Assembly (NCBI GenBank): GCA_016176415.1
Contig: JACOXH010000002.1
Span: 32,072 to 96,071, forward strand
DNA: 64,000 bases
Direction of reading: 5' to 3'
DNA from: Candidatus Daviesbacteria bacterium
GTDB lineage: Bacteria; Patescibacteriota; Microgenomatia; Daviesbacterales; UBA10151
Part shown: positions 14,742 through 64,000 of the stretch, piece by piece
Layout of the letters: every line of letters begins with the position of its first letter
Numbering within the stretch: the stretch's first letter is position 1
Made by a program: the position numbers and the translations under genes
The notes under the pieces: model-generated
Told to the model about the DNA's origin: nothing
Databases searched by the model: none
The model's input: only the letters and a program-made list of their open reading frames with translations

Positions 14742-14793
14742 TAGAGTCTAGGAAAATAATCTCTAGACTCTTGACTCTTGACTCTAGTCACTC
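14742..14793. repeat. TAGAGTCTAG/CTAGACTCT inverted repeat followed by TTGACTC tandem units
   Basis: It lies in the intergenic region between the kinase and receiver genes. It belongs to the GAGTCAA/TTGACTC repeat family. Confidence 0.6.
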
Positions 14794-15195: not shown

Positions 15196-15944
15196 GGCCT
15201 CCTGTTATCTTTGAGGATGATCATATTTTAGTTTTGGATAAACCCCCGTTCTTGGTAGTGGACCCTGCAGAGAGCGTTAAAGAAGAGACTTTGGCTGATA
15301 TTTTAATAAAAGAGTTTGGAATTGAACTGTCCAGAGGTGGTATTGTGCACAGGTTAGATAAAGATACTTCAGGCGTAATTTTGGTTGCAAAAACTCAGCA
15401 GGCTTTGGAAGGCCTGCAAAATCAATTTAAGGAAAGGAAGACAAAAAAAGAGTATCTAACTTTAGTTCATGGATTAGTGCCTGAAAAAATAACAGTAACA
15501 GGTAGTATTGGCAGAAACCCGGGCAACAGGGAAAAATTTACTGTATTGGAAGAAGGAAAAGAAGCAGAGACAGAGTTTGAACCAATCAAAAATTTTCAAT
15601 TTTCAATTTTCAATTTTCAAAAAATCTTTAGTGATTTTAATAAAATTCAGATGAGGAAGTTGGAGAAGCAAAAGTATGGAGAGTTTACATTATTAAAGTG
15701 CAGACCAAAGACTGGACGGACACATCAAATTAGGGTACATTTAAAATATATCAATCACCCGGTTGTTTCTGATGAAAAATATGCAGGAAGAAAAATGGTG
15801 AGACTTGATAAAAGGTGGTGCCCGAGGATATTCCTGCATGCTGCGAAACTCGGTTTTAAGCACCCTGCAAGCGGGGAGTGGTTAGAGCTTGAAAGCAAAT
15901 TACCGGAGGATTTAAAAAAAGCATTGGAGCGTTTAAATGGATAA
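15192..15944 (+). CDS. RluA-family pseudouridine synthase
   Basis: HRLDKDTSGV catalytic motif and TGRTHQIRVH. It contains an approximately 30 aa insert that includes the tandem repeat at 15591. Confidence 0.85.
   Translation: MRPPVIFEDDHILVLDKPPFLVVDPAESVKEETLADILIKEFGIELSRGGIVHRLDKDTSGVILVAKTQQALEGLQNQFKERKTKKEYLTLVHGLVPEKITVTGSIGRNPGNREKFTVLEEGKEAETEFEPIKNFQFSIFNFQKIFSDFNKIQMRKLEKQKYGEFTLLKCRPKTGRTHQIRVHLKYINHPVVSDEKYAGRKMVRLDKRWCPRIFLHAAKLGFKHPASGEWLELESKLPEDLKKALERLNG
15591..15618. repeat. AATTTTC x4 tandem heptamer inside the rluA-family gene
   Basis: Read directly from the sequence. It translates as FQFSIFNFQ. Confidence 0.8.
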
Positions 15945-26131: not shown

Positions 26132-26887
26132 ATGTCAGGACACAGTAAATGGTCAACTATTAAAAGAGCCAAAGGCGCAGCTGATATCAAACGCGGTTTA
26201 ACTTTTACTAAAGTTGCCAACGCTATTACCATTGCTACCAAAATGGGTGGTTCAGGCGACCCTGATTCTAATCCGCGGCTCCGTATGGCTGTGGATGAAG
26301 CCAGAGGGGTTAATATGCCTAAAGACAATATCCAGAGGGCAATTGACAGAGGTTTGGGGAAATTGCCAGGACAAACTTTAGAGGAAGTTCTCTATGAGGG
26401 TTTTGGTCCTGGTAAGACTGCTTTTTTAGTGGAAGGCGTGACAGATAATAAGATGAGAACTTTACAGGAAGTTAAGAATCTTTTTGACAAAAATGGCGGA
26501 AGCTTGGGAGGACAAGGTAGTGTAGCTTATATGTTTGATCGGGTAGGGGAAATAAGAGTCAAGAGTCAAGAGTCAAGAGTCAAGGAAGATGAGATGTTAG
26601 AACTGATAGACTTGGGAGCGGAAGACGTAGTAGATTATTTAGAAGATAACATGCAAGGGTATTTAGTATATGTGGGAAGCTCAGAAGTAAATACTATGGG
26701 TAATAAAATTACCCGGGCAGGATACAAGGTAGAGTCACAGGAATTAGTCTATAAACCTAATGTTTTAATACAAATAAACGATGCAGAATCAGCTAAAAAA
26801 GTGCTGGATTTTGCAGGGAAGTTAGAAGAGTTGGATGATGTGCAAAAGGTATATGCTAATTTTGATATCAATGAAGGGTTGGTTTAA
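26132..26887 (+). CDS. yebC: YebC/PmpR-family transcriptional regulator
   Basis: MSGHSKWSTIKRAKGAADIKRG N-terminus. Confidence 0.9.
   Translation: MSGHSKWSTIKRAKGAADIKRGLTFTKVANAITIATKMGGSGDPDSNPRLRMAVDEARGVNMPKDNIQRAIDRGLGKLPGQTLEEVLYEGFGPGKTAFLVEGVTDNKMRTLQEVKNLFDKNGGSLGGQGSVAYMFDRVGEIRVKSQESRVKEDEMLELIDLGAEDVVDYLEDNMQGYLVYVGSSEVNTMGNKITRAGYKVESQELVYKPNVLIQINDAESAKKVLDFAGKLEELDDVQKVYANFDINEGLV
26554..26584. repeat. AAGAGTC x4 tandem heptamer inside yebC
   Basis: Read directly from the sequence. It encodes VKSQESRVK. Confidence 0.8.
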
Positions 26888-40025: not shown

Positions 40026-42577
40026 TATTCTGTTTTATCTTTTGAACAAACAACTGTAGCAGCAGCTACTCTCTCTCCTGCCCTTACTCTCATCAGTATG
40101 ACACCTTGAGTCTGTCTTTGTAAAACAGGAACTTCTGCAAGACCCATCTTGATTAATTGTCCTTTAGTGGAAGTAAGCACCAAAGTATCCATATCGCCGT
40201 CAATAGCAGCCGCTGTAACAATAGTGCCGGTTTTAGCAGTAATTTGCGCAGCTTTGACTCCCTGTCCGCCTCTGCCCTGTTTGCTCCATGCAGAAAATGG
40301 AGTTTTCTTCCCCAACCCATTTTCCATAATCACCAAAAGTTTATCTTCATTGCTTTGTACCACGTTCATAGAAACCACCTCATCTTCTTTACCCAGCTTT
40401 ATGCCTCTGACACCTGAAGTATCCCTGTGAGTGGGTTTAACTTGTGCTTCAGAAAATCTGATTGACTGGCCTTTTTTGGAAACAATAATCAAATCATCTT
40501 TGCCTGAAGTTGGAGAAACCCATCCCAGCTCATCACCGCTATCAAGCTTTATTGCCACCAGGCCATTTTTGCGGATATTGGCGTATTCCTCTAAAGAGGT
40601 TTTTTTAACAGTGCCTTTTTGGGTACACATAAAGAAGTATTTGGCGCTTTCCCCTTTTTGTCTGGTGGTCAGCACTGCAGTCACTTTTTCGCCCTGCTCA
40701 ACGTTAATTAAGTTAACAATGGCCTGTCCTTTGGCAGCGCGTTGTGTTTCAGGGATTTCCCAGACTTTGACCTGAAAAACTCTTCCTTTATCAGTAAAGA
40801 ATAAAATATTGTCATGTGTTTGAGTATAGAAAATGTGTGAGACAGCGTCTGTTTCTTTGGTAGAAATTCCCATTACCCCTTTACCTCCTCTTTGTTGGGT
40901 TCTGAAAGACATCGGTGATTGTCTCTTGATGTAGCCGCCTTCAGTAATTGTGGCAATGGTTACTTCATTGGGTACCAGATCTTCTTCTGAAAACTCCCCC
41001 ACTTTTTGTTTATAAACTCTCGTTCTTCTGTCATCGCCATATTTCTCTTTAATTTTTAAAAGTTCATCTTTAATAACTTTTAAGATCTTTTCAGGGTGAG
41101 CCAGCAGATCTTCAAGGTAAGCAATTGTTTCGCGGACCATTTTAAGTTCGTCTTCAATTTTCTGTCTTTCCAAAGCTGCCAAACGTCGGAGCTGCATATC
41201 CAAAATAGCAATGGCCTGGATTTCTGAAAGTTTAAATTTAACCATTAAATTCTGCTTTGCAGAATCTGAATCCTTAGACTTTTTAATTGTTTCAATAACA
41301 GCATCAATATTATCAACAGCAATTTTAAGCCCTTCCAAAATATGCTCGCGGGCCTTGGCTTCTGCCAGTTCAAATTCAGACCTGCGTCTCACTATAGTTT
41401 GTCTGTGGTGAATAAATTCTTCTAAAATGCGGTTTAAAGTTAAAAGATGAGGTACGCCGTCTGATAAAGCAACAAGATTAACATTAAAAACCGACTGCAT
41501 GGCTGTATATTTGTAAAGATTGTTTAAAATTGACTGTGGTTTGCCGTCGCGTTTTAGGTCAAAGACAATTCTGACCATTTGTTTGCGGTCTGATTCATCC
41601 CTTAAATCTGCAATCCCTTCCAGTTTTTTATCTTTGACCAAATCTGCAATTCTGGCAATTAAAGTGGCTTTGTTAACCTGATATGGCAGTTCAGAAACAA
41701 TGATTTGCATCTTGCCGGAGGCAGTTTCGTCAATTTCTGCTTTTGCTCTCATGACAATTCTTCCCTTACCTGTAGCATATGCTGCTGTGATTTCGGTTTG
41801 GTCATAGATAGAAGCGCCTGTAGGAAAGTCTGGGCCTTTTACAAACTCTATCAGGTCTTCGACAGTAGCAGAAGATTTAAAAGAGTCATCGTTCGTTTTT
41901 AGCTCACTAGAGTCATGAGGAGTCACAGAATCACTTTGACTCATTGACTCATTGACTCTCTGACTCTCTTTTTTTGCCGGGTGGTCGATCATGTAAATTA
42001 ATGCGTCACAAACTTCTCCTAAATTATGAGGAGGGATTTGAGTAGCCATGCCCACAGCAATACCAGAGGCACCATTAAGTAATAGGTTTGGGATTACAGA
42101 TGGTAACAAAACAGGCTCCTGAGTAGTGCCTGAATAATTATCTATAAACTCAACTGTGTCTTTGTTGATATCACGGAGCAGTTCATCAGCAATTGCTGAA
42201 AGCCTGGCTTCTGTGTACCTCATGGCAGCAGGAGAATCCCCGTCTATTGAACCAAAGTTTCCCTGACCGTCTACTAACATATATCTCATGGAAAAGTTTT
42301 GAGCCATTCTGACCATGGCTTCATAAACAGGAGCGTCACCGTGAGGGTGAAAGTTTTTCAATACTTCTCCGACCACAGCTGCTGATTTTTGATAACGCGA
42401 AGTATGGTGCAGGCCTTGTTGAGACATGGCATAAATAATTCTTCGCTGGACAGGCTTTAAGCCGTCTCTGACGTCAGGTAAAGCGCGGGAGACAATAACA
42501 GACATGGCATAGTCCAGATAGGACTTTTGCATTTCTTCAATAATCGGGGCTGGTTGAACTTTGCCAATGTTACTCAT
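40025..42577 (-). CDS. gyrA: DNA gyrase subunit A
   Basis: [16 protein letters not shown], the active-site region AAMRYTE, GPDFPTG, and C-terminal beta-pinwheel repeats. Confidence 0.95.
41936..41967. repeat. (T/C)TGACTC(A/T) x4 tandem octamer inside gyrA
   Basis: Read directly from the sequence. It lies in the insert encoding [13 protein letters not shown], upstream of the GPDFPTG motif. Confidence 0.75.
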
Positions 42578-53508: not shown

Positions 53509-54114
53509 TCATTTTAAAGTGGGCATTTCCAGCATCAGATATTCTAAAATAGCCCTGATATTTACATTTTGTTTAACCCATTTTTCTGCCTCCAAAAGCT
53601 TGTTTGCAAAGTCCGGATAATCTGTAATGTGGTTACGAAAATAAGCAATTAAATTTTGTAAAAGTTCTTCCCTGTTTTTGGTTTTCTCCACCACTTCAAA
53701 CCTTTGTTCGGGCGTTGCCTTAAGTAGTTTTTCTATGTCTTTTGAATTATTCATGACTCTTGACTCTAGACCCTTGACTCTAACTATCTCGCACCTTGAA
53801 AGTATAGTTGGTAATATTGTTGTATCTGAATTGGCTCTCATCAAAAATTGGCCATTAGCAGGCAGCTCTTCTATGGTTTTTAACAGCGCATTTTGGGCTT
53901 CTAAAGTCATGACTGAAATATCCTCAATAATCACACTCCTTCCTTTAGCAGAGTATGGTTTTAGGGAAAAATGCTCTTTTATTTTTCTGGCCTCTGCTAT
54001 TCCCAGTTTTTCCCCCGCTTTAAAATACAGAGTATCCGGGTGATTCACGTTCCCACTTTCCATGTGGGAAGCCAGGGTTTGAGGACTGGGAGAAATCAGA
54101 AGCCTTGCAATCAT
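53509..54114 (-). CDS. holB: DNA polymerase III delta-prime-like protein (short)
   Basis: NALLKTIEELP and the SRC motif (TILSRCEIV). It lacks an obvious Walker A. Confidence 0.55.
   Translation of the reverse strand: MIARLLISPSPQTLASHMESGNVNHPDTLYFKAGEKLGIAEARKIKEHFSLKPYSAKGRSVIIEDISVMTLEAQNALLKTIEELPANGQFLMRANSDTTILPTILSRCEIVRVKGLESRVMNNSKDIEKLLKATPEQRFEVVEKTKNREELLQNLIAYFRNHITDYPDFANKLLEAEKWVKQNVNIRAILEYLMLEMPTLK
53754..53781. repeat. TGACTCT-type repeats inside the holB-like gene
   Basis: TGACTCT TGACTCT AGACCC TTGACTCT, encoding VKGLESRVM. Confidence 0.65.
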
Positions 54115-54139: not shown

Positions 54140-55846
54140 ATGCCCAATTTTGCTGCCCAGAATTACACCATTGAAGACATTCTTTTTAAGCAGGGATTAA
54201 TCAGCGCTGATCAGCTTTCCCAGGTTAAATTAGAAAGTATTAACTCCGGACAGCCTGTTGAAAGCATCTTAATCACCCATAAAGTGGTGCCGGCTGACAA
54301 AATTATTCAGGCTAAAGCCCAAATTTTGGGAGTTCCCTATATTAAACTTGAAGATAAAGCAATCTCTGCAGATATTTTAAATCTGATTCCTGAACCTGCT
54401 GCCCGCCGCTATTCCATTATTCCTTTTGAAAAAAGAGAAGACGAGCTGTCTGTGGCAATGGCAGACCCTTTAGATATCCAGATTACTCAATTTATAGAAA
54501 AGAAAACCGGTTTGCGGGTTAAGCCGTTTTTGGCACAACAGGAAGATATTATAAAAGCAATTTCCGATCAGTATTCTCAAAATTTAACTTCAGAAGTAAC
54601 TTCTGCTTTGCAGGAAGTGGAAGCTGTTACGCCTGATGAGGAGACGGCAGCAGGACCGGAAATCTTACGCGAAGCTCCTGTTTCCAACATTATTGATCAT
54701 TTGCTGCAATATGCCATCAAAAGCCGCGCCTCTGATATTCACGTTGAGCCGCAGGAAGACCGGACCCGCGTACGCTACAGAATAGACGGTATTTTGCAGG
54801 AAAAAGTTTTACTTCCAAAGGGTGTACACGATGCTTTAGTTTCCAGGGTGAAGATCTTATCAGTCCTAAAAATTGACGAGAAAAGACTGCCTCAGGACGG
54901 CAGGTTTACATTTACCTATGGGAAGGACGTAATAGATCTGCGTGTTTCCACTATCCCTACAGTTTTTGGTGAAAAGGTAGTGATGAGGCTTTTGCCCAAG
55001 TCAATGGGGGCGCCCACGCTTTTGGAACTTGGTTTAAGAGGGGTATCTTTTAAGGCTTTGGAAGGTCAGATGCTCCGTACACACGGTATTATTTTAATCT
55101 GCGGGCCTACAGGTTCAGGTAAAACTACTACTCTTTATTCAGTATTGAGTAAAATTTCTACAACCAAAGTTAACGTGGTAACCATTGAAGATCCGGTAGA
55201 GTATCAAATTGCCGGCGTAAATCAGGTTCAGGCAAATCCCCAGGTTGGTTTAACTTTTGCTTCCGCTTTGCGGAGTTTCCTGCGTCAGGATCCCAATATT
55301 ATTATGGTGGGAGAAATCCGTGATACGGAAACTGCAGATTTGGCAATTCAGGCTGCTTTAACCGGACATCAGGTTTTTTCCACTATTCACACCAACTCTG
55401 CTGCCGGCGCCCCTCCCAGGCTTTTGGATATGGGCGTTGAGCCCTTTTTACTGATTTCTGCTCTGAATGCAGTAGTAGGACAAAGAGTTGTCAGAAAAAT
55501 TTGTTCTCACTGCAAAGCCGAATTTAATGCCCCGCCTGAAGTGGCAGAAACAATTAAACATATTTTAGGCAGACTGCTTCCTCCCTCTACAGGAATTTTA
55601 AAACTGTACAAAGGGAGGGGTTGTAATTTTTGCGCCAATACCGGTTATTTAGGCAGAGTGGGAATATTTGAAGTTTTAGTAATTACGGATCAAATTGCTA
55701 AGTTGGTTTTGGAGCATGTTTCATCTCATTCTATCGAAGAGGCTGCTGTTTCTGCAGGCATGATTACTATGAAACAGGATGGGTATTTGAAAGTTCTGGA
55801 AGGCGTGACTACCATGGAGGAGGTGTTAAGAGTCGCACAAGATTGA
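54140..55846 (+). CDS. pilB: type IV pilus assembly ATPase PilB (GspE family)
   Basis: N-terminal GSPII_E_N-like domain, Walker A GPTGSGKTTT, and the tetracysteine CSHC...CNFC. Confidence 0.9.
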   Translation: MPNFAAQNYTIEDILFKQGLISADQLSQVKLESINSGQPVESILITHKVVPADKIIQAKAQILGVPYIKLEDKAISADILNLIPEPAARRYSIIPFEKREDELSVAMADPLDIQITQFIEKKTGLRVKPFLAQQEDIIKAISDQYSQNLTSEVTSALQEVEAVTPDEETAAGPEILREAPVSNIIDHLLQYAIKSRASDIHVEPQEDRTRVRYRIDGILQEKVLLPKGVHDALVSRVKILSVLKIDEKRLPQDGRFTFTYGKDVIDLRVSTIPTVFGEKVVMRLLPKSMGAPTLLELGLRGVSFKALEGQMLRTHGIILICGPTGSGKTTTLYSVLSKISTTKVNVVTIEDPVEYQIAGVNQVQANPQVGLTFASALRSFLRQDPNIIMVGEIRDTETADLAIQAALTGHQVFSTIHTNSAAGAPPRLLDMGVEPFLLISALNAVVGQRVVRKICSHCKAEFNAPPEVAETIKHILGRLLPPSTGILKLYKGRGCNFCANTGYLGRVGIFEVLVITDQIAKLVLEHVSSHSIEEAAVSAGMITMKQDGYLKVLEGVTTMEEVLRVAQD

Positions 55847-55850
55847 TATA

Positions 55851-55972
55851 AATTCTAAGCACTAAATCCTAAATACTAAACAAATCCAAATGTACAAAAT
55901 ACAAAATTCAAAACTTTTGAACATTTGATATTTGGATTTTGATATTGTTTAGAGTTTAGATATTAGAATTTA
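55851..55972. repeat. approximately 120-nt imperfect palindrome built from CTAAAT-type heptamers
   Basis: The left arm (55851-55892) is complementary to the right arm (55931-55972). It lies in the pilB-pilT spacer. Confidence 0.7.
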
Positions 55973-55987
55973 GAGTTTAATAAAATT

Positions 55988-57040
55988 ATGAACATACAAC
56001 AGCTTTTAGATATAACGGTTCAGAGAAATGCTTCGGATTTACACTTGTCCGTAGGGTTTCCGCCCATTGTAAGGGTTCACGGAGAACTTTTGCCGGTTCC
56101 CGGCGAAGAAGCGATTTCACCCCAACAGATGGACAGTTTAATTTTGCCCCTTATTTCCGATATACAAAAAAATATTTTCTCACAAACTTTCGAGTTGGAT
56201 TTTTCCTTTGAACATCAGGGAAAAGCAAGATTCAGGGTTAACCTTTACAGGCAAAAAGGCCACCCTGCAGTATCACTCCGGCTGATCCCCTACACTATCC
56301 CCCAGGTTGCACAATTAGGATTTCCGCAGGTAATCAGCAGAATGCTGGAACTCAAACAGGGGTTTATTTTGGTAACCGGTCCTACAGGTCATGGCAAATC
56401 AACTACTTTGGCCTCGTTTATCAATCAAATTAACCAAAGCCGCGCTGCTCACATTATTACCATTGAAGATCCCATTGAATATGTTTATCCTGCCGGTAAG
56501 TCATTAATAGAACAAAGAGAGATGTATTCTGATACAAGGTCGTGGGACAATGCCCTGCGTGCTTCTTTGCGTGAAGATCCGGATGTGGTGTTAATCGGTG
56601 AAATGAGAGATCTGGAGACGATTGCATCAGCTATGACTATTGCTGAAACAGGACATTTGGTTTTTGCCACGCTGCATACTAACTCTGCTGCTCAGTCAGT
56701 TGACCGTATTATTGACGTTTTCCCTGAAGTTCAACAGCCGCAAATCAGGCTTCAGTTGGCAGCAACACTGGAAGCTATCCTGTCGCTCCGTCTTGTGCCT
56801 ACTGTTAGCCCGGGCAGAGTTTTAGCTTCAGAGTTGTTGTTTGCTACACCGGCGGTGCGCAATGTAATCAGAGAAGGAAAATCATACCTGATTGATAATA
56901 TTATTGAAACATCAGCAGAATCAGGCATGCAGACTCTGGAAAAATCACTGGCTGATTTAGTTAAAAAAGGAAGAATTTCGCAGGAAGTAGCCGGCCGTTA
57001 CTCGCTCCGTCCTGAATTACTGTATAAGCTTATTAAATAA
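55988..57040 (+). CDS. pilT: twitching motility / pilus retraction ATPase PilT
   Basis: ASDLHL, Walker A GPTGHGKSTT, and GHLVFATLHTNSA. Confidence 0.9.
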   Translation: MNIQQLLDITVQRNASDLHLSVGFPPIVRVHGELLPVPGEEAISPQQMDSLILPLISDIQKNIFSQTFELDFSFEHQGKARFRVNLYRQKGHPAVSLRLIPYTIPQVAQLGFPQVISRMLELKQGFILVTGPTGHGKSTTLASFINQINQSRAAHIITIEDPIEYVYPAGKSLIEQREMYSDTRSWDNALRASLREDPDVVLIGEMRDLETIASAMTIAETGHLVFATLHTNSAAQSVDRIIDVFPEVQQPQIRLQLAATLEAILSLRLVPTVSPGRVLASELLFATPAVRNVIREGKSYLIDNIIETSAESGMQTLEKSLADLVKKGRISQEVAGRYSLRPELLYKLIK

Positions 57041-57048
57041 CTCAGACT

Positions 57049-58248
57049 ATGGAATTTTTATACAAAGCCAAAGATCTGCAGGGTGAGGATCATACCGGTA
57101 GCGTTCAGTCTCCTGATGCTCATTCTGCTGCAGCAATTATAAGAAAAAAAGGGCTGATTATTATTTCTATTAATCTCAAGAATGCTCCTGCAAATAGGTT
57201 TTTGGACCGTTTTTTAAACAGGGTCAGTTTAACGGAACTGGTGATTATTACCCGGCAGCTGGCCACTATGGTATCCAGCGGTTTAGTTTTGTCTGAGGCA
57301 ATAGATATTTTGGAAGAACAGCAGATTAATAAGACCTTAAAAAAGGCCTTGTCAGAAATTTCCCAGGATATCAAAGGAGGGCTTACTCTGGCTCAGGCTT
57401 TGAGCAAATATCCTGATATTTTTCCTCATCTTTACGTAAATTTGGTTAAAAGCGGAGAGGCTTCGGGAAAACTGGATACAGTTTTGCTGCAAATGGCGGA
57501 CGGGCTGGAAAAAGACAGGGAATTTCAGTCCCGGATCCGCGGTGCCCTGATTTATCCTGTGGTTGTAATGACAATGATGGTAGTAGTGATGATTATTATG
57601 ATGGTTTTTGTTATTCCAAAATTATTGTCTCTTTATTCCCAATCAACTATAGAATTACCTCTTCCTACAAAAATCCTGATTACAACTTCCAACATTTTTG
57701 TAAATTTTTGGTGGGCGGGCCTGGCAGTTTTGGTTCTGGCGGTGACGGGTCTAACCCGCTGGAAACGGACGCCGCAAGGCAGTTTATTTTTAGGCAGGCT
57801 GATTTTGAGGACCCCTATTATCGGGAAAATTGCCTCAAACGTGGTTTTGACTAATTTTACCCGTACATTCGGATTGCTTACTGCTGCCGGTATCCCTTTG
57901 CTTGAATCGATCGGCATAGTGTCTGATTTAACAGATAACCCTGTCTATAAAAATGCCCTTAAGGATGCATACAACGGTGTTGAGAAAGGTCTGCCTTTTT
58001 CTTCACTTTTGGTTTCTTCTGTTTTCCCTAAAATTGTCAGTCAGATGATTAAGGTCGGTGAAGAAACGGGAAAGTTAGATGCAATCTTTTTAAAACTTTC
58101 AGAGTATTTTGAATCTGAATCAGATCATTTGGTCAAAAACTTAACAGTGGCAATAGAACCGGTTGTCCTGATTATTTTAGGGATAGGTGTGGCATTTTTG
58201 GTGATCTCCATAATCCTACCTATTTATAAGTTGACAACATCATTTTAG
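57049..58248 (+). CDS. pilC: type IV pilus platform protein PilC (GspF family)
   Basis: Two GspF-like repeats and three TM segments. Confidence 0.9.
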   Translation: MEFLYKAKDLQGEDHTGSVQSPDAHSAAAIIRKKGLIIISINLKNAPANRFLDRFLNRVSLTELVIITRQLATMVSSGLVLSEAIDILEEQQINKTLKKALSEISQDIKGGLTLAQALSKYPDIFPHLYVNLVKSGEASGKLDTVLLQMADGLEKDREFQSRIRGALIYPVVVMTMMVVVMIIMMVFVIPKLLSLYSQSTIELPLPTKILITTSNIFVNFWWAGLAVLVLAVTGLTRWKRTPQGSLFLGRLILRTPIIGKIASNVVLTNFTRTFGLLTAAGIPLLESIGIVSDLTDNPVYKNALKDAYNGVEKGLPFSSLLVSSVFPKIVSQMIKVGEETGKLDAIFLKLSEYFESESDHLVKNLTVAIEPVVLIILGIGVAFLVISIILPIYKLTTSF

Positions 58249-58339
58249 TGTCTAGATTTTAGCGACTAGACTCTAATTGACACTTGACGACTCGTCATAA
58301 ATTGTGTCTACAATGAAATACAAGAGGGGGTGAGAAATT

Positions 58340-58879
58340 TTGAAAAAATCTGCTCAAGTTCACAAAGGTTTTACCCTTGTTGAACTTTTAATTGTTATGG
58401 CAATCATGGGTATTCTAGCCCTGGTTGTTTTAGTGATTATTAACCCTTTGGAGGTAACCCGCCGGGGACGCGATTCAGCCCGTTTGGCTGATTTAGCCAG
58501 TTTGCAGCAGGCAATTAACGTAGCTGTACAAGAAGCAACTACTTCTTCAGCTGAAATCCTTTGTAGTGGGACCACTGCTCCGTGTAGTGGCTCTAGTCAC
58601 ACAGGCAGCAGAAGCGCTAACGGTACAGGTTGGATAAAAGTCGACTTGTCTTCAAATTCGACCATGTCAGTTGCAGCTTTACCAATTGATCAGACCAACA
58701 GCAGTCAATACCATTATACTTATTGTTCTGATGGTAACGCCTGGGAAATTAATGCAACATTGGAGTCTCAACAGCAGTCAGGTAAGCCAGGAAACGATGG
58801 GGGTAATGACCCCGCGCTTTACGAGGTTGGATCTAATTTAGGACTTATTGCCACGTCAGGGGGAAGTTGTTCTTATTAA
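58340..58879 (+). CDS. type IV pilin (candidate major pilin)
   Basis: The prepilin leader ends KGFTLVELLIVMAIMGIL. TTG start with a GGGGGTGAG ribosome-binding site. Confidence 0.8.
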   Translation: MKKSAQVHKGFTLVELLIVMAIMGILALVVLVIINPLEVTRRGRDSARLADLASLQQAINVAVQEATTSSAEILCSGTTAPCSGSSHTGSRSANGTGWIKVDLSSNSTMSVAALPIDQTNSSQYHYTYCSDGNAWEINATLESQQQSGKPGNDGGNDPALYEVGSNLGLIATSGGSCSY

Positions 58880-58883
58880 ATAA

Positions 58884-59792
58884 ATGTGGGAGTCAGCAGG
58901 CTTTATAACCGGTATTATTTTAGGTAGTTTTGCTAAGGCGCTGGCTGACAGGAGTTTAGGCAAAAACTCATTTTGGGGAAGGTCGTACTGTCCATCCTGC
59001 AAAGCAGGATTAAGGTGGTACGACCTCTTTCCCGTTTTCTCATATCTGCTTCTTAAAGGCCGGTGCAGATACTGTCATAGGAAGATTGGTATTGAATATT
59101 TAGTGGTTGAGGTAGTGATGGGAGTATTAATAGCGTTTCTTTTTACCCAGACATTTGTTAATTTTAAATTTGAAATTTTTAATTTTTATTCAATTTTAAA
59201 TTTTAAATTTTTAATTTTTATTTTCGAACTGATACTTAAAATTTTCTTTATTACTGTTTTGACAGCTTTATTCATAACTGATATTAAAAAAATGCTGATT
59301 CCTGACAGAATTGTTATACCTGCTATTTGGATCGGACTCACTTCCCTCTTTGCGTTGACTGCTTATAAAATCGGGTATCTTTACTATTATCTTTCAAGTA
59401 ATCTGTTGGGAAGGTACCTTCTGCCTCCCAATGAATATTTCGGGAGACATGCTTTAATAATCTCTCAACCTCTTTTGTACGGGATTGGGACAGGTTTTGG
59501 TATAGCTGCTTTTTTCTACATTATTATATTGCTAACCCGGGGTAAAGGCATGGGCGGAGGTGACGTAAAATTGGGCGCATTTATGGGGTTGATGTTGGGA
59601 TTTCCCAATGGTATTTTGGCTTTAATTTTGTCATTCTTAACAGGCGCTGTTTTTTCCGTTATGCTGATTATTGCCGGTAAAAAACATTTCGGACAGGTTA
59701 TTCCGTTTGGACCCTTTCTTGTGGCCGGCAGTTTAATTGCTCTTTTTTGGGGAAACAGAATTATTGATTGGTATTTACAGATTGGTCGGTAA
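58884..59792 (+). CDS. pilD: prepilin peptidase (A24 family)
   Basis: N-terminal CPSC...CRYC, the catalytic-Asp context GGGDVKL, and multiple TM segments. It contains an A/T-only repeat insert. Confidence 0.85.
   Translation: MWESAGFITGIILGSFAKALADRSLGKNSFWGRSYCPSCKAGLRWYDLFPVFSYLLLKGRCRYCHRKIGIEYLVVEVVMGVLIAFLFTQTFVNFKFEIFNFYSILNFKFLIFIFELILKIFFITVLTALFITDIKKMLIPDRIVIPAIWIGLTSLFALTAYKIGYLYYYLSSNLLGRYLLPPNEYFGRHALIISQPLLYGIGTGFGIAAFFYIIILLTRGKGMGGGDVKLGAFMGLMLGFPNGILALILSFLTGAVFSVMLIIAGKKHFGQVIPFGPFLVAGSLIALFWGNRIIDWYLQIGR
59158..59224. repeat. A/T-only tract with two tandem units of about 31 nt, inside pilD
   Basis: ATTTTAAATTTGAAATTTTTAATTTTTATT / AATTTTAAATTTTAAATTTTTAATTTTTATTTT. It encodes NFKFEIFNFYSILNFKFLIFIF. 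Confidence 0.8.
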
Positions 59793-59836
59793 TATAAAGC
59801 TAAATTGCTGTAACCATTCAGGATTTGACAAAAGTC

Positions 59837-59904
59837 TGTCATCCTGAGCGTAGCGAAGGATATAATTGAAGTTATATTCTTCGGCTTTCAGCCTCAGAAT
59901 GACA
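59837..59904. repeat. MITE-like palindromic element, copy E (short form)
   Basis: TGTCATCCTGAGCGTAGCGAAGGAT...GCCTCAGAATGACA. Confidence 0.7.
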
Positions 59905-59990
59905 ATTTCTTTGGAAACTCCTGAACTATTACAAATTGCTATATTGACAAGTTTTTAAAGGTGTGTGAATAATAATTACAGTAACAAAAT

Positions 59991-60389
59991 ATGAAAAAGT
60001 TTCTGCCCAAAACTGTCAATAATCCTAAAGGCTTTACATTAGTCGAACTTCTGGTTGTTATCTCTGTTATTGCTGTTTTATCTGTCATTGGTATAACCAT
60101 CTTCTCCGGTACTCAAAAAACAGCCAGGGATTCAAGAAGACGGGCAGATGTGGATGCTTTAAGTAAAGCAGTAGAAGCTCATTATAATAGTAGTAAAGAC
60201 CAATATTGCACGGCTAATGCCGGTACTTATTGTGCGCCTGTTGCAGCATGGTTTGCCAGCGGTAGTTTGCCGAAGGATCCGCAAACGAGTGCAGACTATA
60301 CCGGAGTTCCGGCAAATGGAGCTACTACCTACAATGTCTGCGCTACTTTAGAAGGTGGCGGAACATATTGTAAAACCCAACAGCAGTAA
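59991..60389 (+). CDS. type IV pilin-like protein
   Basis: KGFTLVELLVVISVIAVL prepilin N-terminus. A TTGACA promoter-like box lies at 59944. Confidence 0.8.
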   Translation: MKKFLPKTVNNPKGFTLVELLVVISVIAVLSVIGITIFSGTQKTARDSRRRADVDALSKAVEAHYNSSKDQYCTANAGTYCAPVAAWFASGSLPKDPQTSADYTGVPANGATTYNVCATLEGGGTYCKTQQQ

Positions 60390-60397
60390 TTCTTTCG

Positions 60398-60832
60398 ATG
60401 CCAAAATCTTCCCGCGGTTTCACTCTGGTTGAGCTGCTTATCACTGTTTCTATTATTGCGATACTTTCCGCAATTGGTCTGATTGTTTATTCTGCTGTAA
60501 TAAAACAGGGCCGGGATTCAAAAAGGCAGTCTGATTTAAGATCTATTCAGTCTGCTTTAGAACAATATTATTCGGATCAATTCTATTATCCTTCATCAAT
60601 TACAATTAATAGCCCGCTTAACTTTGGGGGAAAAACCTATCTCAATAATATTCCCGGCGATCCTTTGGGTAATCCTCAATATAGTTATATTGCTTCCCCT
60701 TCAGGATGCAATAATACTTCAGTAAAGTGCAACTATTACTGTCTTTATGCTAAGCTGGAGAACACCTCTTCTCCTGCGCCTTCAGGTTGTACTTACCCTG
60801 GTGGTTATAATTTTGCAGTCAGTCCTCCTTAA
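60398..60832 (+). CDS. type IV pilin-like protein
   Basis: RGFTLVELLITVSIIAIL prepilin N-terminus. Confidence 0.8.
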   Translation: MPKSSRGFTLVELLITVSIIAILSAIGLIVYSAVIKQGRDSKRQSDLRSIQSALEQYYSDQFYYPSSITINSPLNFGGKTYLNNIPGDPLGNPQYSYIASPSGCNNTSVKCNYYCLYAKLENTSSPAPSGCTYPGGYNFAVSPP

Positions 60833-60848
60833 TGTACAATAGAAAGAG

Positions 60849-61364
60849 ATGAAACTTTCTGCCGCAGGTTTTACCCTTATTGAACTTTTGGTTGTAATGG
60901 CTATTATGGGTATAATTGGGGTCTATTCTCTTGCAAACTACAGGTCATTTGGAGAGGACCAGAACTTAAGAAATGCTGTTTTGGATATTATTACTCTACT
61001 CCGGCAGGCTCAAACCAATGCTACAGCAGGTACCATATGCACAAATGCAGGAGGAGCTATGTGGCGTGTTAATTTTAAAACAACTAATACCCTTGAACTG
61101 CAATGTAAACAGCCCTCTCAGACCTCTTTTACCACAAAAAAGATACTGGTACTTGACCGTAATATAACCATTGCAAGCGGAATAATAAGCGAGGGTTGTG
61201 GAGGCCAGTCTATTTCTCTGCCGTTCCCTGTTTATTTTGCTCCTGTTACCGGAAAGATAATATTGGCAGACACAGCTTGCTCATTATTTAATATTCCTGT
61301 AACCAACAATAAAACCACAAAGTTTTTTACAATAGAAACAGGAGGAAGAATTTATGCGCAATAA
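60849..61364 (+). CDS. minor pilin / pseudopilin
   Basis: AGFTLIELLVVMAIMGII prepilin N-terminus. Confidence 0.75.
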   Translation: MKLSAAGFTLIELLVVMAIMGIIGVYSLANYRSFGEDQNLRNAVLDIITLLRQAQTNATAGTICTNAGGAMWRVNFKTTNTLELQCKQPSQTSFTTKKILVLDRNITIASGIISEGCGGQSISLPFPVYFAPVTGKIILADTACSLFNIPVTNNKTTKFFTIETGGRIYAQ

Positions 61365-61824
61365 AGGTGGAAGCTTAATTGAGGTAACAATAGCAACCAC
61401 AGTAGGTATATTGGTGGTTAGTGCTTTAACATTTGCCACTATTTTTTCTTTGAGGAATGCCAATTTTGCCAAAAGTTCTGCACAGGCCACAAAGTTGGCG
61501 CAGGATGGAATAGAGAGAGTGAGAACGCTGCGGGACAGAAACGGAGCGGTAAACTATACAGGCAGTCCGGGGGCCAGCGAGTTTGATGCTCTTTGGTCAG
61601 TTTCCTTCAGTTGTCCTTCAAATTGTTACTTTTACTTTGATGCGTTGGGAAAACTTTCAGGCGGAACAGCAAGCAATTTTGAGGTGATTGCGCCCGATTT
61701 TAAAAGGCAGTTTAAGATAGAAGATTCCGGCAGCGAACAGAAAAAAATTACTGTGATTGTCAGATGGACTGATCAAACAGGAGACCATGATTCAAAACTG
61801 ACTACCATATTAAGAAAATTATGA
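61354..61824 (+). CDS. minor pilin / pseudopilin
   Basis: GGSLIEVTIATTVGILVV N-terminus. The start overlaps the upstream gene. Confidence 0.65.
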   Translation: MRNKGGSLIEVTIATTVGILVVSALTFATIFSLRNANFAKSSAQATKLAQDGIERVRTLRDRNGAVNYTGSPGASEFDALWSVSFSCPSNCYFYFDALGKLSGGTASNFEVIAPDFKRQFKIEDSGSEQKKITVIVRWTDQTGDHDSKLTTILRKL

Positions 61825-62402
61825 AAAGAAATGGCTTTACTATAGCTGAAATATTAGTTGTTATTGCGGTGATGGCAGTAGTGGGGACTTTTTTAGTGGC
61901 AATTTTTTCCTCTACCCTGCGCGGTAACAATAAGTCTCAAATATTGTCTGCTATTAAACAAAACGGTCAGGCAGTTTTAGATAGGATTGATAAGGAGATA
62001 AGGGGGGCAGACGATATAACCTGCAGAAGCAGTGACGGATATACGCTGGTAATACTTAAATCCAAAATTTACACCAGGTTCAGGTTTATACCTCCTGCTT
62101 CGACTTCCAACGGTATAATCGCAATGGATAATCCCGTACAATCAACAGAAGATCAACAGTTATTTTTAAATAATGTCTGTACGGATCCGTTAGTAAATCC
62201 GGTAGCGTTAACAGACAGCAATCTCCGCTCAGGCGTATCAGTGGAAAATGGGAGCTTTATAAGGGATAAGCCGGCAGGACTCAAAGATCAGATAACTATA
62301 AAGTTTGATTTAAAAGCTGCAAAAGAGGTGCCTCCGGTTATTGCCGACGATGTTGGTGCTGTGACTTTTCAAACAACCGTATCATGCAGAAACTGTCCTT
62401 AA
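61821..62402 (+). CDS. minor pilin / pseudopilin
   Basis: NGFTIAEILVVIAVMAVV N-terminus. Confidence 0.7.
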   Translation: MKRNGFTIAEILVVIAVMAVVGTFLVAIFSSTLRGNNKSQILSAIKQNGQAVLDRIDKEIRGADDITCRSSDGYTLVILKSKIYTRFRFIPPASTSNGIIAMDNPVQSTEDQQLFLNNVCTDPLVNPVALTDSNLRSGVSVENGSFIRDKPAGLKDQITIKFDLKAAKEVPPVIADDVGAVTFQTTVSCRNCP

Positions 62403-62429
62403 GGGATGATTTTATTGTAATATAAAAAT

Positions 62430-63308
62430 ATGCGCCAAAAAGGTCAGGTTATTTTAATACTGGTTTTGATTATGACTGTAGCTTTGGCAGTCGGGATTTC
62501 CGTTGTTCAGCGTTCTCTTTCCGATGTATCAACTGCTACTAAAATTGAGCAATCTTCAAGAGCTTTTTCAGCGGCGGAAGCAGGAATAGAAAAAGCATTA
62601 AAAAATGATGCTTCGGGGGTAGATTTCACAGTGGATAATAATTCCAGCGCTACTGTGAGCACTAACAATTTAGTGCCGGGACTGCCGACCGGATACGGAC
62701 GTCAGGACCCGATAGAATGTCCTCCCGGTGATTCAAGTTTACCCAAAGAAGGCATGGCACAGGTTTGGTTGGCCAACCCCCAATCTACAACCAATCCACC
62801 GGAAGAACGTTACAAAGCAAACGAGCTGGATGTTTACTGGGGTAATTCTTCTGGTGATAAAGCGGCATTGGCAATAACAGTGGTTTATTATCAGGGTGGT
62901 GAATACAAAACCAACAAATATTATTTTGATCACAATAACAGGGTTCCCCCTCTTCCTGCGGGTGACGGATTTACGACGGTAGATTGCCCCGGTAACATTA
63001 AGCCCGCTTATTCTGACGGAACTACAGGAAGTACTTATCAGTGTTCAACAAGGATCAAGCCGTTACCTGCCGGCACATTGATTCTTTTGCGGGCCAGGCT
63101 TCTGCTGAATGAAACAGAACAGCCTTTTGCTGTGCAGGCAGTCGGGACCTGCGGCAGAGATTGTTCTATTCCCCCGCAGGCAAAACTAATAGAATCAACA
63201 GGCACCTCAGGGGACGTTGCGCGAAAGATTAAATTCTGTCAGACGGAAAAAGTAGTTCCTGCTTATTTTGACTATGCCATCTTTTCTATGGGAGAGATTA
63301 ACAAATAA
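62430..63308 (+). CDS. PilX-like pilus-associated protein
   Basis: It has an N-terminal hydrophobic helix (GQVILILVLIMTVALAVGI) but no G-F/E5 prepilin motif. It sits inside the pilin operon. Confidence 0.55.
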   Translation: MRQKGQVILILVLIMTVALAVGISVVQRSLSDVSTATKIEQSSRAFSAAEAGIEKALKNDASGVDFTVDNNSSATVSTNNLVPGLPTGYGRQDPIECPPGDSSLPKEGMAQVWLANPQSTTNPPEERYKANELDVYWGNSSGDKAALAITVVYYQGGEYKTNKYYFDHNNRVPPLPAGDGFTTVDCPGNIKPAYSDGTTGSTYQCSTRIKPLPAGTLILLRARLLLNETEQPFAVQAVGTCGRDCSIPPQAKLIESTGTSGDVARKIKFCQTEKVVPAYFDYAIFSMGEINK

Positions 63309-63317
63309 CATTTGACA

Positions 63318-63359
63318 ATGGACAATGGACAAATAAATCTCAAATGTCAAATGTCAAAT
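63318..63359. repeat. heptamer tracts (ACAATGG x2, AAATGTC x2.5) at the start of a minor pilin gene
   Basis: Read directly from the sequence. The start codon of the 63351 gene lies inside the repeat. Confidence 0.8.
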
Positions 63360-63752
63360 GAAAGAGGGTTTTCCCTTGTAGAGTCCATGATTGTTATAGC
63401 GATAATAGGTTCGATAGTCTTTTTGATTGCCAGTATTCCCAACTCTTTAATGCTTATTACCAAAAGCAGAAATATAAGTTTAGCCAGAGAAATAGCTGTT
63501 AAACAAATTGAAGATAAAAGACAAATAAGTTATGAAAATTTAGTAAATGACAACTCCCCTATTACTGATACACGATTGAGCTTGTTGCCTCAGGGAAGCG
63601 GAAATTTGATTATTGAAGATTGTGATAGTGCAGTCTGCACAAACGGAGAGCCTGTAAAACGGGTTAAAACAACAGTCAGCTGGGTTGTTGAAGGAAAGAC
63701 GCAAAAAGTTACTTTGGAAACAATGATTGGAGAAGGAGGGATTAACCAGTGA
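63351..63752 (+). CDS. minor pilin / pseudopilin
   Basis: MSNERGFSLVESMIVIAIIG prepilin N-terminus. ATG 63351 is preferred over TTG 63312. Confidence 0.7.
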   Translation: MSNERGFSLVESMIVIAIIGSIVFLIASIPNSLMLITKSRNISLAREIAVKQIEDKRQISYENLVNDNSPITDTRLSLLPQGSGNLIIEDCDSAVCTNGEPVKRVKTTVSWVVEGKTQKVTLETMIGEGGINQ

Positions 63753-63783
63753 AATGTCAAATGTCAAATGTCAAATGTCAAAT
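63752..63783. repeat. AAATGTC x4 tandem heptamer at the start of the next pilin-like gene
   Basis: Read directly from the sequence. It places ATGs at 63754, 63761, 63768 and 63775. Confidence 0.85.
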
Positions 63784-64000
63784 CTGCAATAAAGGCTTGA
63801 CTTTGGTGGAGGTGTTGGTGGCCATGGGAATTGTTACTGTAACAGGAGTGCTGTTAGTTGCTGTTATAGTTAACAGTACCGGAGTTTTTTCTAAGCAGTC
63901 TTCAAAAATACAAACAGGTGTAAGTATTAACGATTCTTTGATGCAGATAAGGGGCGCCATTAAACAGGCAAGTGGTATAGCTGAAACTTTAACACAGGGT
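63761..64000 (+). CDS. minor pilin / pseudopilin (3' end truncated by the window edge)
   Basis: The frame is open from GTG 63749 / ATG 63761 to the window end. N-terminus MSNVKCQICNKGLTLVEVLVAMGIV. This ORF is not in the supplied track because it has no stop codon. Confidence 0.65.
   Translation, partial: MSNVKCQICNKGLTLVEVLVAMGIVTVTGVLLVAVIVNSTGVFSKQSSKIQTGVSINDSLMQIRGAIKQASGIAETLTQG

Follow-up and report, generated by a model that had tools for sequence, protein, structure and literature searches.

Heptanucleotide repeat tracts at the 5' ends of two minor pilin genes of Candidatus Daviesbacteria, probably tolerated in a discarded leader

Tandem repeats of a seven-nucleotide unit have been described in several bacterial systems. 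In the prophage CUS-3 of Escherichia coli K1, the gene neuO carries the heptanucleotide AAGACTC (poly-psi) in its 5' coding sequence, where it is translated as 7-amino-acid repeats, and its 3-53 copies vary within cultures, the gene being ON at copy numbers that are multiples of 3 and OFF in 66% of genomes (PMC13001214). In Haemophilus influenzae, heptanucleotide simple sequence repeats (SSRs) in the promoters of hmw1A and hmw2A are present in 13-38 copies, and their length alters expression (PMC2651432). Additionally, an excess of heptameric SSRs has been reported in many bacteria and has been studied in Xanthomonas (GGGAATC) and Nostoc (GGGGAYT), with polymerase-footprint slippage put forward as a hypothesis (PMC4692102). 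In this article, heptamer tracts at the 5' ends of two consecutive minor pilin genes, referred to as pilin 1 and pilin 2, are discussed for Candidatus Daviesbacteria, an uncultured member of the Microgenomates within the candidate phyla radiation (CPR). The tracts are located at positions 63309-64000, the 3' end of a 64-kb stretch of DNA that is referred to as the window and whose numbering is used throughout unless a relative, designated by an L number, is named.

Type IVb prepilin leaders, also known as class III signal peptides, comprise 15-30 amino acids (aa), terminate in Gly and are removed by a prepilin peptidase. Based on the comparison of the window with related genomes, the tracts of the two pilin genes are probably lineage-typical, slowly evolving heptamer repeats that are tolerated in a discarded leader, rather than a dedicated on/off switch. 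The comparative set consisted of the window and 31 orthologous loci from other species of Daviesbacteria or Microgenomates, amounting to 594 kb, in which tandem tracts were detected by exact-repeat counts per period and by Tandem Repeats Finder (TRF), with shuffled sequence as a control. The NCBI proteins P0001 and P0123 (locus tag HYS95_00575), encoded on one 106,010-bp contig, are identical to pilin 1 and pilin 2, respectively; pilin 2 exits the window, and its remaining part was taken from P0123. The 84-aa fragment of pilin 2 gave no matches in a protein search, and the full-length orthologue from L048 was used as the query instead. Both proteins display the characteristics of type IV prepilins, namely Gly at position -1, a hydrophobic N-terminal helix, Glu at +5 and the N_methyl motif. 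Pilin 1 matches PF07963 (N_methyl) at 3.6e-6 and TIGR02532, while pilin 2 contains the motif G/LTLVEVLVAMG, with the slash marking the cleavage site, together with a weak PilV/GspI match.

The PilV/GspI-like minor pilin 2, which has 198-202 aa in full, is encoded from 63749 to 64000 on the + strand, where it runs off the window, and the Gly codon of its cleavage site at 63794-63796 is followed by LTLVE. Its tract 2 (63752-63793, + strand) is composed of 4.6 exact copies of AAATGTC at 63752-63783, followed by degenerate AAATCTG and CAATAAA, and begins on the last base of the pilin-1 stop codon TGA (63750-63752); that it abuts this stop had been recognized in an earlier sequence-only reading of the window. 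At most orthologous loci, the start of pilin 2 overlaps the stop of pilin 1 (ATGA or GTGA, position -1) and the leader has 3-5 aa, for example GTGAAAGGA, which encodes MKG/LTLIE. In comparison with the GTG-AAA-GGN (MKG) of these relatives, and also with L049, tract 2 is a 39-nt insert that is in frame and free of stop codons. The pilin-2 frame is open from GTG 63749, which overlaps the pilin-1 TGA as GTGA and yields MKCQMSNVKCQICNKG/LTLVE, and ATG 63761, the start chosen by NCBI for P0123, lies in the same frame and yields MSNVKCQICNKG/LTLVE. Among the insert-bearing alleles of pilin 2, 12 of 13 are in frame with the -1 start and stop-free (binomial p = 1.7e-5), and L005 and L016 have no in-frame start of this gene other than that at -1. 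Because of the conserved ATGA/GTGA start and the 12 of 13 insert alleles in that frame, the start of pilin 2 is most likely GTG 63749, upstream of the tract, with ATG 63761 serving at most as a secondary start. The in-frame ATGs 63351 and 63761 do give MSN followed by a prepilin motif, as had been stated for both genes, but in pilin 2 the most likely start precedes it. A GGAGG at 63735-63739 (+ strand), situated within the conserved GEGGINQ* codons of pilin 1 and 9 nt before GTG 63749, was dropped as weak evidence for this start; it counts little because the genome shows no general use of Shine-Dalgarno sequences, with 4-mers of this kind found at 8 of the 53 open reading frames (ORFs) of the window, which is the background level of 15%, and the pilin at 58340 and the gene at 61354 as exceptions.

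Among relatives, leader length varies through tracts of this kind and ranges from 3 to 32 aa. Leaders of at least 10 aa occur in 34 of 114 pilin-2 orthologues, and 18 of these 34 begin with MK, as does the ancestral MKG; amino-acid identity at lag 7 within the 34 long leaders is 17% vs ~6% at other lags. At the site occupied in the window by AAATGTC in 4.6 copies, the relatives carry AAATCTC (1.7 copies, L015), AAATTTC (2 copies in L028 and 4.7 in L022), AAATATC (4.4 copies, L033), AAAGTGC (4 copies in L009 and L023, one copy in L007), CGACTAC and GGAAGAC (4 copies of each, L005), AGTCTAC and GGAAGTC (4 copies of each, L016), GTATATG (L026), AATGGAA (L012), AATTTAC (4 copies, L048) or an inverted pair, (CATTGGA)3...(TCAAATG)4 (L056). 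Several of these units, including AAATTTC, AAATATC, CGACTAC and GGAAGAC, contain no ATG at all. Within the AAATNTC family found at this one site (AAATGTC, AAATCTC, AAATTTC and AAATATC), the fifth base is species-specific and uniform across the units of each species. For the orthologous site in general, the unit number varies between species, with values of 0, 1.7, 2, 4 and 4.6. In L022 (10400-10447), L033 (9834-9872) and L032 (4192-4209), the pilin-1 stop is TAA, so that ATAA replaces ATGA, and no canonical in-frame start precedes the cleavage site of pilin 2; a non-canonical start (ATA or ATT), reinitiation or a dead gene is possible in these cases.

Pilin 1 is encoded at 63318-63752 (+ strand; 144 aa as annotated from ATG 63318), the Gly codon of its cleavage site lies at 63366-63368 and is followed by FSLVE, and every candidate ATG of this gene sits within a tract. 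Tract 1a (63314-63332, + strand) consists of GACAATG in 2.7 copies, equivalent to two copies of ACAATGG, with ATG 63318 in frame and ATG 63325 out of frame. Tract 1b (63335-63360, + strand) consists of AAATCTC followed by AAATGTC units; its exact part is TCAAATG in 3.0 copies at 63340-63360, which TRF extends to 63335 via the variant AAATCTC and which the sequence-only reading had recorded in another register, as AAATGTC at 63342-63359. Among the ATGs of tract 1b, only 63351 is in frame; 63344 is out of frame and runs into a stop, and 63358 is likewise out of frame. The segment CATTTGACA (63309-63317, + strand) is the TCAAATG unit in inverted orientation and provides the left arm of a stem of 9 bp, with 63352-63360 as its partner. 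All three tracts that had been reported at the 5' ends of the two consecutive prepilin-type genes are present in the sequence, and an ATG is seen in all of their units, as had been stated.

The frame of pilin 1 is also open upstream of ATG 63351, from TTG 63312 and from ATG 63318. From ATG 63351, the product is MSNERG/FSLVE (133 aa, 6-aa leader), which fits the 120 pilin-1 homologues, mostly of 131-133 aa with MxxxxG leaders such as MEKG, MKNERG and MSNEKG, and this MxNExG type of leader is found in most pilin-1 orthologues. The seed of tract 1b, ATGTCAAATGAAA, is the plain single-copy start of pilin 1 in L015 and L019, whose start region ATGTCAAATGAAAAAGG holds this 10-nt seed. ATG 63318, on the other hand, is homologous to the start ATGGACAATGAAGAAGG of L028 and to the MDERG start of L048 (TAATGGATGAGCGTGG), the closest relative, in which the pilin-1 start has no tract; read from ATG 63318, the window carries a 33-nt in-frame insert relative to L048, MDN[GQINLKCQMSN]ERG. 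At most orthologous loci, the start of pilin 1 overlaps the stop of the upstream gene or sits 2-6 nt past it. From these comparisons, the start of pilin 1 would be either ATG 63318, with a 17-aa leader, or ATG 63351, with a 6-aa leader, both being in frame and both having homologous starts in relatives. In L049, the same pilin-1 tract has a 1-nt deletion in one unit, and the gene starts at the ATG of the preceding unit, giving MSKSNERG. The expectation that a change in the units alters the start or the leader length is borne out on an evolutionary scale by this shifted start and by the range of leader lengths.

The pilin tracts belong to a wider population of period-7 repeats. In the window, the two-unit pattern has 8 matches vs 1.1 expected, a number reached by 0 of 100 shuffles, and period 7 accounts for 7 exact repeats with 2.5 copies or more, vs 0-1 for periods 5, 6 and 8-12. 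Across the 594 kb, exact repeats of at least 3 copies were found 45 times at period 7, never at periods 5, 6 or 8-15 and never in shuffled sequence, and TRF arrays numbered 187 at period 7 vs 16 at period 6 and 26 at period 8, corresponding to approximately one tract per 3 kb. The exact runs cluster at 4-5 units, 29 of them having at least 4 copies, with a maximum of 5.6. These tracts are not mainly intergenic, as many lie inside ORFs as in-frame inserts. Perfect or near-perfect examples that are translated in the window include HolB (53754-53782, VRVKGLESRVM), YebC (26554-26584, IRVKSQESRVK) and an RluA-like pseudouridine synthase (15591-15620, NFQFSIFNFQ), as well as a translated period-8 tract in GyrA (41936-41966), whose insert lies between two Pfam-matched stretches; in relatives, heptamer tracts lie within TrmD and RecG. 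The prepilin peptidase PilD (58884-59792, + strand) has a heptamer-encoded insert of its own, a 72-nt period-7 array at 59153-59224 (10.6 degenerate copies; a 32-nt repeat present twice) that encodes a variable linker from A24_N to the peptidase domain, and its orthologues have inserts of differing length and unit at the same linker spot, L029 being without an insert. The unit AAGAGTC/GACTCTT, which resembles the neuO unit AAGACTC, recurs at 14766-14785 (upstream of a response regulator) and in the tracts of YebC and HolB, and also in RecG of three species (L011 19875, L012 19221 and L021 16302).

Although heptamer tracts are found throughout these genomes, the 5' ends of prepilin genes are approximately 4-fold enriched in them, with 40 of 199 tracts lying at most 90 nt upstream of a prepilin Gly vs 4.8% expected (p = 2e-14); conversely, 32 of 217 prepilin cleavage motifs have a tract at most 90 nt upstream. 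The coding-strand units at prepilin leaders are poor in stop codons (8/39 vs 160/296, p = 7e-5) and rich in ATG (9/39 vs 17/296, p = 0.001).

Between species, tract units at orthologous sites have been gained, lost and homogenised, and tracts differing in unit and copy number occupy orthologous sites in the pilin-2 leader, at the pilin-1 start, in the PilD linker, in TrmD and upstream of PilM. The comparison of L048 with L050-L055 is an example at short distance: at ~97% nucleotide identity, and 98% for the pilin-2 protein, L048 has a leader insert of 45 nt, containing a tract, that L050-L055 lack. The string of this insert (4717-4761; L050 site ~4930) recurs almost unchanged in L023 as the tract ahead of another pilin gene (4669-4699), suggesting copying between paralogous pilin 5' ends. 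As a separate observation, L050 and L051, which are otherwise 99% identical, differ by non-repeat indels of 24 and 9 nt and by clustered substitutions (alignment columns 3558-3582 and 4494-4503); these indels fall in a pilin-like gene and in the PilX-like gene, suggesting local hypervariability or recombination in minor pilins.

Within species, no unit-number difference was found in 24 tract-by-contig comparisons covering four species groups with up to six samples each, these being consensus assemblies that are blind to minor variants. The window and three Logan contigs do not differ in tract 1, and copy numbers are equal within the species pairs L004/L014 and L005/L016. The length polymorphism among orthologues that the sequence-only reading had looked to is thus present between species and was not seen within them, and the conserved start of pilin 2 lies outside the repeat. 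An assembly artefact was ruled out as the origin of the tracts, since the same tract sizes occur in contigs with NODE_ (SPAdes-style), k141_ (MEGAHIT-style) and other names, and tract 1 is identical in four independent assemblies. When JGI metagenome contigs were scanned for exact DNA matches to the left flank plus two units, just two unrelated chance matches were returned.

The explanation favored here can be outlined as follows. Heptamer tracts would arise and turn over throughout Daviesbacteria genomes, generated presumably by replication slippage and local copying of 7-nt seeds, at times as inverted pairs, and would survive at places where an insert that keeps the frame and has no stop codon is nearly harmless. 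The prepilin leader would be such a permissive site because PilD removes it prior to assembly, cutting at the conserved Gly. In pilin 2, the tract would have been inserted between the ancestral GTG 63749 and the Lys-Gly preceding the cleavage site, while in pilin 1 the tracts would have grown from the native start region, with ATGGACAATG and ATGTCAAATG as seeds, and the ATGs of the units would derive mainly from this origin in a native start region. Unit number would shift on an evolutionary time scale, with selection keeping the frame, rather than through a rapid programmed switch, and the ribosome would translate through the tract, the resulting long leaders then being processed by PilD.

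Several points weigh against this explanation. That PilD processes leaders of 16-28 aa is an inference. NCBI annotates ATG 63761, and the choice of GTG 63749 relies on comparative frames alone in a genome without Shine-Dalgarno use. The simple model fails to explain L022, L033 and L032, with their ATAA and no canonical in-frame start. The enrichment of ATG at leaders could reflect selection for spare start codons and not origin alone. Additionally, the perfect 32-nt tract 2 is spanned by no independent contig of the same species, L001 and L002 ending inside it, so that minor length variants are possible, and units that are uniform within species and different between species speak for continuing turnover.

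Related to the favored explanation, and considerably less probable, is the view that Daviesbacteria, and perhaps other CPR bacteria, possess a specific heptamer-generating process, either an idiosyncrasy of replication or repair or a dedicated enzyme, that repeatedly creates and renews tracts of ~30 nt, with exact runs clustering at 4-5 units, often as inverted pairs and at recurring permissive sites in essential proteins as well as in prepilin leaders. Such a process would be an as yet undescribed source of diversity in protein inserts and signal peptides and could give low-frequency frame switching of minor pilins at perfect tracts.

An unlikely alternative is a contingency locus, in which frequent slipped-strand mispairing at tract 2, and perhaps at tract 1b, would shift the frame relative to the upstream start and so switch the minor pilins on and off, or change the ATG used. 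The layout agrees with this idea in that a unit length of 7 nt is indivisible by 3 and the tracts lie within 5' coding sequence, tract 2 with its 4.6 perfect copies after GTG 63749 and ahead of the Gly codon at 63794, and TCAAATG in three copies in pilin 1, an arrangement that matches neuO (PMC13001214). The difference in unit number between species and the homogenisation of units within species point in the same direction, as does, at first sight, the finding that, of 24 ends of Logan k=31 contigs, 7 are located within heptamer tracts (3' ends of L001, L002, L039-L042 and L044), those of L001 and L002 inside tract 2. As evidence of heterogeneity, these contig ends were rejected as ambiguous, for they have a technical explanation: contigs assembled at k=31 break only at tracts of at least ~29 nt, and further copies of the same units are present at other loci and in other species within those samples. 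No sizeable OFF share is seen, 12 of 13 insert alleles being in frame, and the copy numbers of 3-4.6 compare with 3-53 and 66% OFF in neuO and with 13-38 in hmw1A/hmw2A. The within-species comparisons revealed 0 differences in 24, and copy numbers are kept between the species pairs. The tracts are also not confined to surface or restriction-modification genes: tracts of the same size occur in HolB, the RluA-like gene, YebC, TrmD and RecG, essential genes in which switching would be harmful, and GyrA carries its period-8 tract. These housekeeping tracts, together with the units of relatives that lack an ATG, do not support the reading of the tracts as a device specific to pilins.

Even less likely is a role in cis-regulation, according to which the inverted pair at 63309-63360 would form an mRNA or DNA hairpin masking ATG 63351, or the tracts would set spacing or a promoter (TTGACA at 63312), thereby tuning minor-pilin stoichiometry. 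Structure is indeed found where heptamers are paired in inverted orientation. The segment 63309-63317 pairs perfectly with 63352-63360, and tracts 1a and 1b form an imperfect hairpin with a minimum free energy of -14.6 kcal/mol (z = -3.1; 1 of 200 shuffles as stable), and a comparable inverted pair of heptamers, located in the leader of pilin 2 in L056, folds as well (z = -3.7). The PilB-PilT intergenic region at 55845-55990 holds three heptamer arrays (TAAATAC-like, TACAAAA and GTTTAGA) arranged as an inverted repeat, with a hairpin of -34.6 kcal/mol (z = -5.7; 0 of 200 shuffles as stable). By contrast, tract 2 is unstructured (z = +0.9), likewise the tracts of L048, L016 and L049, and a hairpin was rejected as a general property of the tracts, since only the inverted-pair cases fold significantly. 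The promoter reading of TTGACA at 63312 was also rejected, with 19 promoter-like matches in 58000-64000 vs 15.1 +/- 3.8 in shuffles and a weak site at 63298-63326 (9/12). No match to a known RNA family was found in Rfam, and the tract sequences are unconserved between species.

Lastly, a slippage-proof start, in which at least three ATG-bearing units would guarantee an in-frame ATG at any unit number, is very improbable, for although the claimed coverage of all frames by three units holds arithmetically for tract 2, the 1-nt deletion in L049 is accommodated by the ATG of the neighboring unit and ATG-bearing units are enriched at leaders, most leader tracts of relatives have no ATG and several have no start codon of any kind, yet they are in frame with the upstream start, and tract 1b has only three ATGs, two of which are out of frame and run into stops.

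The two genes lie at the end of a type IV pilus cluster that spans 54140-64000 and comprises PilB, PilT, PilC, a pilin at 58340, PilD, five further prepilin-type genes, a PilX-like gene and pilins 1 and 2, so that the prepilin peptidase shares the locus with the assembly genes (PilB, PilT, PilC and PilD at 54140-59792); in relatives, PilM lies downstream of the cluster. The gene upstream of pilin 1 (62430-63308, + strand; 292 aa) is PilX-like, with a weak PilX_N match, and its conserved C-terminus ...FDYAIFSxGEINK* marks the ancestral junction to pilin 1. In two relatives, Y1_Tnp genes (IS200/RAYT-like) are situated beside or inside the pilus clusters (L037 15232-15900 and L043 1459-2175).

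These results have several implications. The starts of pilin genes in these genomes are called inconsistently, with NCBI records and gene calls on Logan contigs differing for the same gene, because the repeat tracts offer several starts, and comparative frames provide a rule for resolving such calls. Heptamer tracts of at least ~29 nt fragment k=31 assemblies, which is a practical warning. No report of heptamer tracts in genomes or pilins of CPR bacteria (Patescibacteria) was found in the literature, and a CPR lineage with about one such tract per 3 kb, many of them translated (GyrA, HolB, TrmD, RecG), is relevant to the question of how protein insertions and diversity of surface structures originate in reduced genomes. 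The more interesting lead is this occurrence of heptamers throughout the genome, with translated inserts in essential genes among them. Type IV pili of CPR bacteria mediate host attachment (e.g. PMC9894109, PMC11623550), and real switching of minor pilins, if true, would matter in this regard, but the evidence favors tolerated repeats.

In comparison with the known systems, the window resembles neuO in having a heptanucleotide in the 5' coding region and in that the full-length protein needs a repeat that keeps the frame. It differs in its 3-4.6 copies, in the lack of within-species variation seen and in its nearly uniform frame; moreover, the window tracts would encode a cleaved leader, whereas the neuO repeat is part of the mature enzyme. 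The layout is thus formally like neuO and yet fails the signatures of a contingency locus, because the copies are few, nearly all alleles are in frame and equivalent tracts exist in essential genes. With hmw1A and hmw2A, the locus shares heptamers placed directly ahead of an adhesin gene, but those genes have tracts of 13-38 copies that are located in the promoter, ~100 bp upstream, and differ between strains, features not seen in the window. Type IVb prepilins show that long leaders can be compatible with processing; in Daviesbacteria, however, the long leaders are sporadic, lineage-specific repeat inserts into otherwise type IVa-like leaders of 3-6 aa and not a conserved family trait. The closest likeness in genomic distribution is to the short tandemly repeated repetitive (STRR) sequences of cyanobacteria and the repeats of Xanthomonas and Nostoc, which share the genome-wide period-7 excess, the orthologous sites with differing length and sequence and the occasional inverted pairs (PMC4692102). 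Those repeats are mostly intergenic and often G-rich, and they reach more than 20 copies, whereas the Daviesbacteria tracts are A/T-rich, have exact runs of at most 5.6 copies and are very often located in coding sequence, including essential genes and leaders.

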